This document shows, piece by piece, positions 9,701-26,155 of a DNA stretch of 37,393 bases. The position numbers were made by a program, and so were the translations under genes. Below the pieces are notes generated by a model, which was not told where the DNA came from, ran no database searches, and worked only from the letters and a program-made list of their open reading frames with translations. This stretch comes from an uncultured bacterium (lineage in GTDB: Bacteria; Patescibacteriota; Minisyncoccia; Phycocordibacterales; CAIZLB01), in NCBI GenBank assembly GCA_937873535.1, contig CALMYA010000004.1, positions 1 through 37,393 on the forward strand, in the 5' to 3' direction. Positions within the stretch are counted from its first letter, which is position 1; every line of letters begins with the position of its first letter.

Positions 9701-9996
9701 AGCCAATGGCCGGGATTGAACCGGCGACCTCGTCCTTCGCTTACACCCCTTCTTTATATATACAAGGGGGCTAGACTGTATCTTAACCCGGTCAGACTTT
9801 CTGAAAGCGGATTCTCTTGTCAGTCGTTCGGGCGAATGTGCGACCATTTCGGTACACAACAATCGCCACGGTCTTGGCCTTCGTAACAATGATGGCTATT
9901 AACCGTTATTCGAGATTCAACAATGCGTTACCGCATAATTGGGCAGACTCTGTGCGAGTCACCATGGACGTGCTCTACCAACTGAGCTACATTGGC
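9701..9996 (-). tRNA. tRNA-Thr (anticodon GGU) interrupted by an intron. 5' exon 9961-9996, 3' exon 9701-9737.
   Basis: The joined exons give a canonical 73-nt cloverleaf: GCCAATG-TA-GCTC-AGTTGGTA-GAGC-A-CGTCC-ATGGTAA-GGACG-AGGTC-GCCGG-TTCAATC-CCGGC-CATTGGC-T. All stems are perfect and U33 and A37 are present. Confidence 0.85.
9738..9960 (-). ncRNA. Group I (self-splicing type) intron, 223 nt, with no ORF, inserted between tRNA positions 36 and 37
   Basis: - The 5' exon ends in U.
- That U can form a U.G pair in a P1 helix: GGU|GACUC-GCACA-GAGUC(U)GCC.
- The intron ends in G.
- A J8/7-like AAGAUACAGUC is present.
- P7 candidate: GACUG/CAGUC.
- GNRA-capped hairpin AUGCG-GUAA-CGCAU.
- P4 candidate: ACGGU/ACCGU.
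- P6 candidate: GGCGA/UCGCC.
- 3' hairpin CCCCUU...AAGGGG.
All folds were made by hand. Confidence 0.8.
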
Positions 9997-10018
9997 TTTT
10001 AAAGGGACAGTGGCCATA

Positions 10019-10621
10019 CTAGTCTATTTTCTTAATCTTTTCAATATGCTCATCCAACATTTTCTTTAACTTTGTGTTGTTAAAGTAAACAGTAAGAACT
10101 CCATATTTATTTTTGAGTTTGTAAGTACCCTTCCTTAAGCTCTCTGAAACTACAATTGAAGGGTGAACTTGTTCTGGTTTGATATGTAGAGCTCTAACCC
10201 AATAATCTTTTACAATTTTCTTGTCTAAATCCTGAAATATCTGTATACCGAACCTTAATTTTGATTTTTTAATCTTAAATATTCGATCTAAAAATAAAAT
10301 GAAGATTCTTATAAGTTGTGGGTCAGTATTTCCCAGCCTTACCGCATTTTTACTTTTCTTATATCCTTCTCCCCAAAACAACCCTAGCCCTAGTCCATAT
10401 ATGAATTCCTCCCCCATACCAATGTTGCCTGGGTCCTTAAAAGGATCTCCCTTCGGATTCCTTTTTACGTAAATAGCTTCTGCAATGGACCTTTTTGAAA
10501 TGCCATGCTTTGCAATCCAATAATTTACACCATTTTCAGAACACTTAAAGATTGCTGCAATCTCACTTACTGATTTCTTTTCAATTGTATATAAACGTGA
10601 GAGGACCTTCTTCATTATCAT
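10019..10621 (-). CDS. Single-motif LAGLIDADG homing endonuclease-like protein with an N-terminal helix-turn-helix. It is free-standing and ends 22 nt upstream of the intron-containing tRNA-Thr.
   Basis: YGLGLGLFWGEGYKKSKNAVRLGNTDPQLIRIFILFLDRIF matches the LAGLIDADG motif and the segment that normally follows it. The N-terminal SVSEIAAIFKCSENGVNYWIAKHGI looks like an HTH. The assignment is by eye. Confidence 0.7.
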   Translation of the reverse strand: MIMKKVLSRLYTIEKKSVSEIAAIFKCSENGVNYWIAKHGISKRSIAEAIYVKRNPKGDPFKDPGNIGMGEEFIYGLGLGLFWGEGYKKSKNAVRLGNTDPQLIRIFILFLDRIFKIKKSKLRFGIQIFQDLDKKIVKDYWVRALHIKPEQVHPSIVVSESLRKGTYKLKNKYGVLTVYFNNTKLKKMLDEHIEKIKKID

Positions 10622-23594: not shown

Positions 23595-23636
23595 ACTTAA
23601 ATTGTAGCATGCTTTGTGTACTTAATTACTGCATAG

Positions 23637-23666
23637 AAAAACACCCATATAAAATGGGTGTTTTTC
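23637..23666 (-). terminator. Intrinsic terminator after tRNA-Asp
   Basis: Stem ACACCCA / TGGGTGT with a 7-nt loop. T-runs follow on both strands (TTTTCT on the minus strand). Confidence 0.6.
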
Positions 23667-23671
23667 GTTTG

Positions 23672-23745
23672 CGCGGTTGATGGGACTTGAACCCACGACC
23701 TCCAGCGTGACAGGCCGGCGCTCTAACCAGCTGAGCTACAACCGC
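23672..23745 (-). tRNA. tRNA-Asp (anticodon GUC), no encoded CCA
   Basis: GCGGTTG-TA-GCTC-AGCTGGTTA-GAGC-G-CCGGC-CTGTCAC-GCTGG-AGGTC-GTGGG-TTCAAGT-CCCAT-CAACCGC-G. The acceptor stem is perfect. Confidence 0.9.
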
Positions 23746-24425
23746 ATTTTTATGAATCTATCGAACACAACCTTCTTTCTGCTAAGAAAAAGTCCTGAAT
23801 TCGAAGAATCCCTATGATTATACATAAAATCATGTAAATTCAAAGAACTATGGACGCTGTAGTTTAGACGGTAAAAATCCCCCTTCCCTTTCCTTAATGT
23901 CCCACCGAGTATACCTACCCGACTTAATCTGCCTTTCAATATACTCAAAAAATCCAGCGAAGCTGATGTAAATCCAGTCTGAATAGTCCAAGATTTCACT
24001 GATCTACCCTTATTTACATAGCCTACCCATACATGACCGTCACCGTCAAAATAACCTCTCACAAAGTCTGATAAAAACTTCAAAGGTACATTGGGGACGG
24101 CAAGGTTCTTTGTTTTTCTTTCAAGAAAACCTAGTTTTCTAAGATCATTGCACATTTCAACACTACCTATCTGCAATCTATGTGAAATATTCTTAATTCC
24201 CTTTTTACTTCTTAAACCTATCTTATGGCTAGACCCCATTTCCGATTTAATTTTTTCTAGCAATTCCTTATCGTTAATATGTAAACACCAATATTGACCA
24301 CCCCTTTTGCCGACAGTGATGTAACCATCCGCAGCAAAAAAGCCTAAGATATAAGCCATCTGCGGCGTCCATTTTTTGAAAAAGTCTTTATTAACTTTTT
24401 TAGATGTAGGCACATGAGCAATCAT
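23736..24425 (-). CDS. Double-motif LAGLIDADG homing endonuclease. It is free-standing and its 3' end overlaps tRNA-Asp by 10 nt.
   Basis: It has two LAGLIDADG motifs, YILGFFAADGYI and FVRGYFDGDGHV. The last codons AAA ATG CGG TTG TAG run into the tRNA acceptor stem. The stop codon is tRNA positions 8-10. Confidence 0.85.
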   Translation of the reverse strand: MIAHVPTSKKVNKDFFKKWTPQMAYILGFFAADGYITVGKRGGQYWCLHINDKELLEKIKSEMGSSHKIGLRSKKGIKNISHRLQIGSVEMCNDLRKLGFLERKTKNLAVPNVPLKFLSDFVRGYFDGDGHVWVGYVNKGRSVKSWTIQTGFTSASLDFLSILKGRLSRVGILGGTLRKGKGDFYRLNYSVHSSLNLHDFMYNHRDSSNSGLFLSRKKVVFDRFIKMRL

Positions 24426-24531
24426 AACAAATGACAGGCTAATGCACTATACATGAAGTATGGATATTATTTTATAATTTATAAAAAACACCAAATCGAT
24501 ACTGCACTAGATGTGCTCTAAACTATTAATG

Positions 24532-24605
24532 TGTCGACGGGAGGGCTCGAACCTCCGACCTGTGGCTTATGAGTCCACCGCTCTAACCAGCTGAGCTACG
24601 TCGAC
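24532..24605 (-). tRNA. tRNA with anticodon CAU (elongator Met or Ile2-type; I cannot tell which by eye)
   Basis: GTCGACG-TA-GCTC-AGCTGGTTA-GAGC-G-GTGGA-CTCATAA-GCCAC-AGGTC-GGAGG-TTCGAGC-CCTCC-CGTCGAC-A. G1:C72 is paired, so this is not an initiator. There is an A31/G39 mismatch. Confidence 0.85.
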
Positions 24606-24651
24606 ATGTGTGAGAACTATAGTATAAAAAAACTTACTTATCAACTAAAAA

Positions 24652-25435: not shown

Positions 25436-26155
25436 TTACACGAAATAAAACTCGTCGAACACCCTCTTGAAATCGGCTATTACTTCGTCGGCAGATGAAC
25501 GAGAAAGCTTGAACGCTGCGCCTTCGTGCGCAATGGTATTTCTTACCTTGTGAGCCTTCCAGGCATCCTGAATTGTTTTAAAGTGAGCTGGGTCTACCTG
25601 CTTAAGCTTCTCGCCTATCGACTCGCCAGAATAGCCCATTTGACCAAGCATGTCTTCAAGTAGAATATCGGCTTCAAGAATAGCCACACGCCAATCGGCC
25701 GGGTTCCCCGACTGCATCAAACCTTCTATATCTTTCCAACGCGGGTCTGGGGCAGCCGAAACAAGCTGTTCATGAATTGGAAGAGCGGCAGTCTTTTTAG
25801 GCATAGCCGCTTCATCCATCTTTCTTCGAATTTCGCTGTACATTGTTTGCGCATACATAATGCCGCATATGAACGCCAAAGAAAGAAAAATGGAAATGTA
25901 GCTTGCAGCCGTTACTGTGCCTTCAAACCCTGCCGTAATTCGCTCGCCAAGATCTGAAGGAAATACCTGCTCGCTCGTTGTGCCGAACAATTTAAATACC
26001 GCCGGCAAAATAATAAAAATAACCATAACAGAAACCAAAGCAATAATTCCGAGCGTACCCTCAAGCGATGGCCCTCCAGAACCGCCACTCGGCTTTCCAG
26101 CAGGTTTGCCCTTGTCTTTACCGCCGCCCCCTTTGTCAGGTTTTTTTTCTGCCAT
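25436..26155 (-). CDS. Membrane protein with a Gly/Lys-rich N-terminus, 2 TM segments and a C-terminal HEPN-like (DUF4145-like) domain
   Basis: The C-terminal AWKAHKVRNTIAHEGAAF contains an Rx4H motif (RNTIAH). The assignment is from motif recognition only. Confidence 0.6.
   Translation of the reverse strand: MAEKKPDKGGGGKDKGKPAGKPSGGSGGPSLEGTLGIIALVSVMVIFIILPAVFKLFGTTSEQVFPSDLGERITAGFEGTVTAASYISIFLSLAFICGIMYAQTMYSEIRRKMDEAAMPKKTAALPIHEQLVSAAPDPRWKDIEGLMQSGNPADWRVAILEADILLEDMLGQMGYSGESIGEKLKQVDPAHFKTIQDAWKAHKVRNTIAHEGAAFKLSRSSADEVIADFKRVFDEFYFV

Follow-up and report, generated by a model that had tools for sequence, protein, structure and literature searches.

Results

An endonuclease gene that ends inside a tRNA-Asp gene

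The window analysed here is a stretch of 37,393 nucleotides from an uncultured bacterium of the Patescibacteriota (contig CALMYA010000004.1 of assembly GCA_937873535.1). Its minus strand carries, in this order, tRNA-Met(CAU), a spacer of ~105 nt, an open reading frame (ORF) of the LAGLIDADG type, tRNA-Asp(GUC) and a terminator. The LAGLIDADG gene is the subject of this work, as it takes its stop codon from the tRNA gene that follows it. The features of this unit are:

23736..24425, minus strand: LAGLIDADG ORF, free-standing and two-domain, 229 aa as listed from the ATG at 24425, with its stop codon TAG at 23738-23736
23671..23745, minus strand: tRNA-Asp(GUC) as called by ARAGORN; Rfam places the tRNA at 23672-23745 with 70.1 bits
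23736..23745, minus strand: 10-nt overlap of ORF and tRNA, in which the codons (AT)G CGG TTG TAG are tRNA positions 1-10
23636..23666, minus strand: intrinsic terminator, a hairpin and U-run directly 3' of tRNA-Asp (-21.4 kcal/mol, z = -8.3)
24531..24605, minus strand: elongator-type tRNA-Met(CAU), upstream; it borders the slot on the left in most loci, occupied or empty
24616..24644, minus strand: promoter-like TTGATA-17-TATAGT before tRNA-Met, a consensus match alone

The 3' end of the ORF reads ...AAA ATG CGG TTG TAG, and the stop codon is formed by U8-A9-G10 of the tRNA. The latter has no intron, a canonical D arm (GCTCAGCTGGTTAGAGC) and a discriminator G, and its CCA is not encoded. An overlap of 10 nt with a borrowed stop had been proposed in an earlier note on this DNA; it was confirmed by the sequence, by ARAGORN and Rfam, and by independent contigs. 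Logan contigs from two wastewater runs span the junction with 0 differences, and a contig from a factory metagenome (a separate study) is identical to the window over 23676-23996, junction included. The ORF call could have rested on a sequencing error, as the same note had pointed out, but the identical junction in these independently assembled contigs ruled out an error at the stop codon. A search for RNA runs containing the locus found none, and a joint lacking the homing endonuclease gene (HEG) was found in none of the DNA contigs placed on it.

None of 200 shuffles (0/200) folded as well as the terminator that follows tRNA-Asp. Between tRNA-Met and the endonuclease gene, folding gave just a weak structure (z = -1.35) and no terminator. 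The endonuclease gene is without a stop codon or a terminator of its own, and the terminator of tRNA-Asp closes the unit. At the other end, TTGATA-17-TATAGT could drive a unit made of tRNA-Met, the endonuclease gene and tRNA-Asp. A separate promoter for tRNA-Asp within the last codons of the HEG was not supported: a sigma-70 scan of the window found none there, and the aligned HEG 3' ends consist of A/T-rich codons with no consistently spaced -35/-10 pair.

The gene encodes a conserved protein with a predicted homing endonuclease fold

LAGLIDADG homing endonucleases make site-specific double-strand breaks in targets of 14-40 bp. The ORF protein matched Pfam LAGLIDADG_3 (E=2.7e-15; 56.8 bits for a cut-off of 22.5), and its two motifs, LGFFAADGY (D33) and RGYFDGDGH (D127/D129), correspond to invariant columns of a 34-sequence alignment, the catalytic Asp and Gly columns being invariant among all the aligned sequences. 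The AlphaFold2 model (pLDDT 86, pTM 0.85) has a two-domain LAGLIDADG fold with the expected helix-strand order in both halves. In a Foldseek comparison with the PDB, the top match was I-Tsp061I (TM 0.70), followed by I-AniI, I-HjeMI and I-DmoI, all with a probability of 1.00; the bI3 maturase was also among the best fold matches. At the sequence level the PDB matches were weak (E about 1e-4). Motifs and predicted fold suggest that the protein is a two-domain, monomeric-type LAGLIDADG homing endonuclease, and the comparative patterns described below point to a candidate target. The gene does not belong to the intron- or intein-encoded class, the ORF being bounded by tRNA-Met and tRNA-Asp and having its own start; Intron_gpI gave no match in the window at the Rfam gathering threshold.

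More than 1400 homologues, typically of 223-225 aa, come from metagenome bins of Parcubacteria/Paceibacteria. Comparison of the window gene with its homologue in locus L001 (82% identity) gave a pN of 0.108 and a pS of 0.707 (proportions of nonsynonymous and synonymous differences), with a dN/dS of about 0.055. Judged from these substitutions, the gene is under purifying selection and encodes a working protein rather than a relic.

The family is docked on the 5' end of tRNA-Asp

We compared the five loci with the closest homologues (61-82% identity) and 80 loci from a metagenome scan (38-59% identity), three of the 80 being cut by a contig end. In all of the five closest loci (5/5) the gene ends 10 or 21 nt into tRNA-Asp, though the upstream context differs, and the window junction itself recurs in L001, L002 and L003. 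Among the further loci, tRNA-Asp lies directly downstream in 76 of the 77 that could be assessed (59 contiguous, 16 intron-split and one cut after the D arm), the single exception preceding tRNA-Val. The positional tie to tRNA 5' ends that the earlier note had proposed thus extends to the family and holds down to 38% identity.

The distance between the gene and tRNA-Asp is within about 80 nt in almost all loci. It differs in L157, where two tandem elements of ~95 nt (L157:3160-3320) separate the endonuclease gene from a tRNA-Asp split by an intron; each element starts with a tRNA-Asp-like GCGGGA and holds the palindrome ATTCGCTTCGCGAATCGCCCGC. In the 51 parsed loci, the stop codon is the TAG at tRNA positions 8-10 in 32, the TAG at 13-15 in 3 and a D-loop TAG in 7. 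In the other 9/51 it lies 3-13 nt upstream of the tRNA, indicating that a stop inside the tRNA is frequent, not obligatory. The arrangement is also visible in the proteins: a C-terminus of the form [MLIVT]-Arg-x, which is the translation of xxG-CGG-NNN-TAG, was present in 98 of the 120 best protein homologues. In most loci just 2 nt separate the conserved ...RFIK from tRNA +1, the gene being flush with the tRNA at its 3' end, and the spacing from the conserved C-terminus to +1 ranges from 2 to about 30 nt.

We considered the possibility that the overlap is a meaningless product of genome compaction or of ORF calling. The tRNA offers TAG in two of its three frames, so that an ORF that loses its stop ends soon, and a stop of the gene's own is kept just upstream in the 9/51 loci mentioned above. 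As a control, 343 tRNAs in 156 loci resembling those of the Candidate Phyla Radiation (CPR) were scanned for ORFs that are 70 aa or longer and have their end within nt 1-30 of the tRNA. Such an ORF was found for 64/343 tRNAs, and ~56 of the 64 were of the nuclease type (LAGLIDADG, helix-turn-helix (HTH)-LAGLIDADG-like or GIY-YIG). Of the other 8, 7 were short ORFs of spurious appearance and the eighth was a glutaredoxin-like gene of 79 aa, the stop of which barely touches tRNA-Arg; no housekeeping gene running into a tRNA was found in this set. Essentially nuclease-type genes alone therefore end inside a tRNA, and this control led us to reject general genome compaction. Furthermore, the arrangement is conserved to 38% protein identity and the junction is identical in independent samples. 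A meaningless overlap is, in our view, highly improbable.

In some carriers, tRNA-Asp has an odd T arm, with GTGGGGTCAGCACCCAT where GGTTCRANYCC is expected (L002:3440-3512, L004:3724-3796 and L149:~2252-2324); the L149 copy was missed by ARAGORN.

Empty and decayed sites

Species-representative genomes were scanned with the 5' half of the window tRNA-Asp. The endonuclease gene was present in 0/120 of the loci found in this way, a figure that leaves HEG-free genomes with an intron or a variant D arm uncounted, as the pattern has the canonical arm. A same-strand arrangement of tRNA-Met, spacer and tRNA-Asp was found in 29 CPR loci, with spacers of 33-110 nt in 18 (clean sites) and of 200-472 nt in 11; except for promoter-like boxes, these 29 spacers had no conserved sequence. 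Decayed C-terminal coding pieces of the endonuclease persist in L024 and L078, and the L149 copy is frameshifted. The presence of occupied, empty and decayed states at one site is, as far as can be read from the sequences, the pattern expected of a homing element that goes through invasion, maintenance, decay and loss. Comparison of the Met-Asp interval in relatives, which the earlier note had recommended, thus provided the empty sites but not the exact insertion junction, no HEG-free relative being close enough for a base-by-base comparison.

In L024 the endonuclease remnant is followed by a degenerate 5' fragment of tRNA-Asp (GCGGGTTTAGCTGTTTTGGTTAGGCAAGC), ~100 nt upstream of the functional tRNA-Asp; this fragment may be the scar of an older junction. 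A 239-aa membrane-anchored HEPN-like protein (window 25436-26155) is a conserved neighbour of this tRNA-Met/tRNA-Asp island, whether the locus is a carrier or empty, with 27-51% identity, indicating that the island is syntenic across Paceibacteria.

Introns and altered D arms in the resident tRNA-Asp

A group I intron interrupts tRNA-Asp at 35/36 in 16/77 carrier loci. With Rfam, two of these introns scored 52.5 and 51.8 bits, above the gathering score, and two more scored 42-45 bits. In a first parse, the canonical D arm (GGT(T)AGA) was present in 14/15 intron loci as compared to 13/62 contiguous ones (Fisher p=3e-7, uncorrected for phylogeny); with two loci parsed later the counts became 14/16 and 13/63, the p value belonging to the first parse. 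The variants comprise at least 5 different single-base insertions within GGTTAGAGC, as well as G22-to-A changes that weaken the D stem, and their sequences include GGTTAGTAGC, GGTTAAGAGC and GGTTAAAGC. Intron state changed at least 8-11 times on the HEG tree and sister pairs differ in state, which means that the intron/D-arm pattern recurs independently. Intron and D-arm variants thus appear, in these alignments, to be near-exclusive alternatives.

By comparison, the front edge of the tRNA gene looks similar whether or not the HEG is present. Positions -5..-1 are A/T-rich with T at -1 in empty and occupied junctions, and the two kinds of junction are alike over -5..+20; no site located there would therefore be lost through insertion at +1. 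These observations suggest a target within the tRNA gene, at approximately positions 18-38, rather than at its front edge.

A target-like block precedes the endonuclease gene

Two features lie immediately upstream of the coding sequence:

24431..24452, minus strand: GTATAG-N9-CTGTCAT, an operator-like block with the same register as tRNA-Asp positions 18-38; the form in most relatives is GGTTAG-N9-CTGTCAC
24421..24426, minus strand: TATGAT, a -10-like box 7 nt before GTG 24413; relatives have TATAAT-N6-ATG/GTG

Alignment with homologues indicates that the GTG at 24413-24411, which gives a protein of 225 aa, is the probable true start, the ATG at 24425 falling within the TATGAT box. The position of this box next to the start suggests that the gene has a compact promoter of its own, immediately upstream of the start codon, and a leaderless or near-leaderless mRNA; the sigma-70 scan did not call it, as no good -35 was found.

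The complete string GGTTAG-N9-CTGTCAC-N4-TATAAT-N6-ATG/GTG stands directly before the start codon in 33/80 loci with enough upstream sequence. Relative to tRNA-Asp 18-38, the middle of the block is replaced by an A/T-rich -10-like box. CCTGTCA was absent from all 29 empty-site spacers. The resident tRNA is a perfect match to the left half of the block in 3/7 intron loci versus 0/24 contiguous ones (p about 0.008, for a comparison chosen post hoc), each of the 24 contiguous carriers having a tRNA that deviates from the left half of its local block at one position at least. In the clade formed by the window, L001 and L002, the block reads GTATAG-N9-CTGTCA(T/C) instead of GGTTAG, and the first beta hairpin of the protein shows the clade-specific changes N39G/S, Q49H and T51N.

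We also considered whether the upstream GGTTAG..CCTGTCAC block could be the orphaned 5' half of a tRNA-Asp split by an older insertion. The register fits, yet its two halves are separated by a 9-nt A/T-rich stretch that is conserved and resembles a -10 box, and there is nothing like tRNA positions 1-17. Furthermore, the block is conserved across very divergent HEGs, thus behaving as a control region of the element and not as a decaying scar. This possibility was therefore rejected.

DnaA-box-like sequences (TTATCCACA/TGTGGATAA) recur just upstream of the block, 40-60 nt before the HEG start, in L127, L128, L146, L147, L169, L181 and L196.

Other nuclease genes are docked on tRNAs

A second endonuclease-type gene preceding a tRNA in the window had been pointed out in the earlier note. 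This proved correct, and the pattern is broader than the note had stated. ORF 10019-10621 (minus strand) encodes an HTH and one LAGLIDADG-like motif, GLGLFWGEG, its Pfam match reaching just E=0.07. A gap of 22 nt separates its end from the 5' exon of a tRNA-Thr(GGU) that is split by an intron (region 9701-10621, minus strand); this tRNA was missed by ARAGORN and by Rfam at the gathering threshold. The ORF has 637+ homologues, and all of those sampled (4/4) precede the same kind of split tRNA; ARAGORN read three of these as Thr(GGU) and the one in L207 as Arg(GCG), though its exons match those of the window. The homologue in L210 stops at TAG 8-10, and that of L209 runs on for 48 nt into the split tRNA, entering the intron.

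An HTH-LAGLIDADG-like family of 228-244 aa is docked on the elongator tRNA-Met(CAU) that precedes tRNA-Asp in L024, L033, L052, L061, L122 and L136. It shares 28% identity with ORF 10019-10621 (E=2e-9) and ends at tRNA-Met positions 8-10 or 13-15. With docked genes on both tRNA-Met and tRNA-Asp, a single tRNA island can carry several nuclease genes. A GIY-YIG domain-only family of ~79 aa (Pfam E about 1e-12) is also flush on tRNA 5' ends and stops inside the tRNA (L080:~513-791, L123, L211:1201-1440, L212:1201-1446 and L213:1201-1461). It docks on tRNA-Asp, Ala, Val and Met, with overlaps of 10 nt for tRNA-Asp (using the same TAG), 15 nt for tRNA-Ala and 23 nt for tRNA-Val. In HEG-free loci, the GIY-YIG gene fills the slot of the LAGLIDADG gene.

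Discussion

A proposed homing model with a target inside the tRNA gene

On balance, we favour the view that the LAGLIDADG gene is an intact, free-standing HEG that sits in the tRNA-Asp leader and homes via a target inside the tRNA-Asp gene. From the patterns described above, we infer that the enzyme would recognise an HEG-free tRNA-Asp gene at roughly positions 18-38, i.e. from the D-loop GGTTAG through the anticodon loop CCTGTCAC. The break would be repaired from the carrier allele and the HEG, located 18-38 nt away, would be co-converted, a process known as 'intronless homing'. A position flush with the 5' end would be the nearest harmless spot to the break and would maximise co-conversion. 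The borrowed stop would be a by-product of this tight packing: because the tRNA offers TAG in two frames out of three, a stop of its own would not be needed. Carriers would usually be shielded by the intron or by D-arm changes, and the target-like block over the HEG promoter would allow the enzyme to repress itself, as I-TevI does.

The overlap would also affect expression. The RNase P cut site would fall between 23746 and 23745, within the Met codon (AT|G). As the tRNA 5' end lies inside the ORF, it is a logical consequence that RNase P would strip the stop codon from the mRNA. The processed, non-stop mRNA would presumably be dealt with by ribosome rescue, and full-length enzyme would be made from the unprocessed precursor only, which would keep its level low and make the overlap a plausible dose limiter.

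Several observations weigh against this model. The window locus is in other respects an ordinary member of the family, the oddity being its unshielded state: its tRNA-Asp is canonical and intron-less, as in its nearest relatives L001 and L002, with which it forms one clade on the HEG tree, and positions 1-39 are identical to the pattern used to find HEG-free alleles. Intronless homing of the Seg type would call for a donor allele that resists its enzyme through sequence changes in the target. The D arm is altered in most carriers without an intron, but it is canonical in the window, L001 and L002, where it is the operator-like block that differs. Under the model, the enzyme of such a carrier should cut its own tRNA gene, yet the gene is strongly conserved. 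This clade would be explicable by a shifted specificity, or by a regulatory instead of a cutting role. The D-arm test is, moreover, confounded by host phylogeny, and the comparison took in HEG-free genomes with the canonical arm only. GGTTAG lies 12-17 bp from the intron site, a distance at the limit of one LAGLIDADG site, so that it is not obvious how a single site of ~22 bp would span the two. In addition, the left part of the operator-like block (TGTATAATGGTTAG) is present in one short HEG-free spacer, that of L052, where it may be a scar or ordinary promoter sequence. Finally, three unrelated nuclease families dock at tRNA 5' ends, which could reflect a property of the slot itself.

Two other explanations have to be compared with a target inside the tRNA. 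The earlier note had suggested that the 5' edge of the tRNA gene is the homing or landing site; the enzyme would then recognise the leader/tRNA +1 junction of an unoccupied tRNA-Asp and land there, and its insertion would destroy the site. One part of this proposal was borne out, in that docking takes place at a constant position: in most loci the gene abuts tRNA +1 with its 3' end, and other nuclease families likewise abut tRNA-Thr, Met, Ala and Val at the 5' end. The 5' edge as landing site was not supported. The sequence upstream of +1 is unconserved in empty sites, the leaders of which have no common sequence and resemble the last bases of the HEG, and the distance from the C-terminus to +1 varies between 2 and about 30 nt. 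Recognition of the junction would also leave unexplained the intron at 35/36, the D-arm variants and the operator-like copy of positions 18-38, all of which point inside the tRNA. We therefore find a target at the junction quite improbable.

The protein could also have been domesticated. It would then not home at all, but would regulate the tRNA-Met/tRNA-Asp unit via the operator-like block, or would serve as a maturase for the tRNA-Asp intron. Such a role would agree with the strong purifying selection in a clade that has neither intron nor variant D arm, with the conservation of the block over the promoter through which tRNA-Asp must be transcribed, and with the bI3 maturase being among the best fold matches. 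Yet the distribution is patchy, the gene being found in 0/120 of the loci sampled for this tRNA-Asp, there are decayed remnants as well as a frameshifted copy, the catalytic acidic residues are invariant, and most carriers have no intron to mature. Domestication thus appears unlikely to us, and we return to homing via a target inside tRNA-Asp.

This model can be extended in a way that we regard as speculative and rather doubtful. In the extension, a non-cleavable copy of target positions 18-38, its centre exchanged for a -10 box, would serve as an operator over the leaderless promoter and throttle both the enzyme and tRNA-Asp, there would be a third route to self-immunity, tRNA leaders would be a general slot for at least three nuclease families, and the docked genes would be an engine of intron mobility. 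If this were true, the host could not cheaply silence or delete the gene, since the operator would throttle an essential tRNA-Asp that is transcribed through it. The operator and the enzyme of the window clade would have drifted together (GGTTAG to GTATAG; Q49H, T51N and N39G), providing self-immunity with neither intron nor tRNA mutation. Docked free-standing genes would also supply what 'ORF-less' group I introns of tRNAs lack, an engine for their mobility.

Group I introns of bacterial tRNAs mostly lack an ORF. Endonuclease genes that stand free on those tRNA genes, as a large chromosomal family, would offer a testable answer to the question of how such introns move. CPR tRNAs have been reported to carry group I introns (PMC8172020; bioRxiv 10.1101/2020.01.27.920355). 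If the model is correct, collaborative homing, which is known from a few phages, would extend to the cellular genomes of a whole bacterial radiation. The locus would also be a natural case for studying the competition between translation and RNase P, the same nucleotides and the same processing site belonging to an mRNA and to an essential tRNA. In addition, the enzymes would provide new LAGLIDADG scaffolds for which a candidate target is defined. For annotation, the consequence is that docked genes and the split or odd tRNAs adjoining them are routinely missed or mis-called.

Comparison with known homing systems

Full-text literature searching did not find a published description of endonuclease genes docked on tRNA 5' ends. 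Related systems are known. Edgell et al. reportedly showed in 2004 that I-TevI represses itself by binding an operator that resembles its homing site and overlaps its own promoter. The present locus is similar in that a target-like sequence, with its central part replaced, overlaps the promoter of the gene; it differs in the enzyme family, and its putative operator is deduced from sequence conservation alone.

In the CPR, group I introns and insertion sequences of 16S and 23S rRNA genes encode LAGLIDADG enzymes, e.g. I-ShaI (PMC11270868), a work in which tRNA is never mentioned. They share host phylum and enzyme superfamily with the present family, and the patchy distribution is that expected for homing. 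However, those enzymes are encoded inside introns of rRNA genes and are mostly single-domain, whereas the window family is two-domain and is located outside introns, on a tRNA.

SegB of phage T4 is a free-standing GIY-YIG homing endonuclease encoded in the T4 tRNA cluster. Its site, which was defined experimentally, includes a conserved tRNA stem-loop motif, and its spread by intronless homing co-converts tRNA genes nearby (PMC2330249). As with SegB, the HEG studied here is located among tRNA genes. Unlike it, this HEG is neither a GIY-YIG nor a phage gene, it overlaps its tRNA, and its target would be in the D-arm/anticodon region and not in the T arm.

Collaborative homing, reviewed together with intronless homing (PMC3984707), has been described in phages for the free-standing F-CphI beside an ORF-less psbA group I intron in cyanophage S-PM2, and for T4 MobE with the nrdB intron (PMC3984707, PMC6083498, PMC2790892). 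In those systems, as here, a free-standing endonuclease gene adjoins the gene that it is thought to cut, and HEG-free and intron-free alleles exist. The interrupted tRNA that such a system would comprise is found in 16/77 related loci and, within the window, in the other pair, tRNA-Thr(GGU) with ORF 10019-10621; the window tRNA-Asp itself is contiguous. The differences are that the host replicon is a CPR chromosome, that the enzyme is of the LAGLIDADG type and not Endo VII-like or HNH, that the host gene is a tRNA gene with no intron in the window, that the HEG is fused to the tRNA 5' end and borrows its stop, and that cleavage is here putative. The known type to which the locus would belong is therefore that of free-standing intronless or collaborative homing; what is new is a chromosomal, LAGLIDADG-type representative fused to an essential tRNA.

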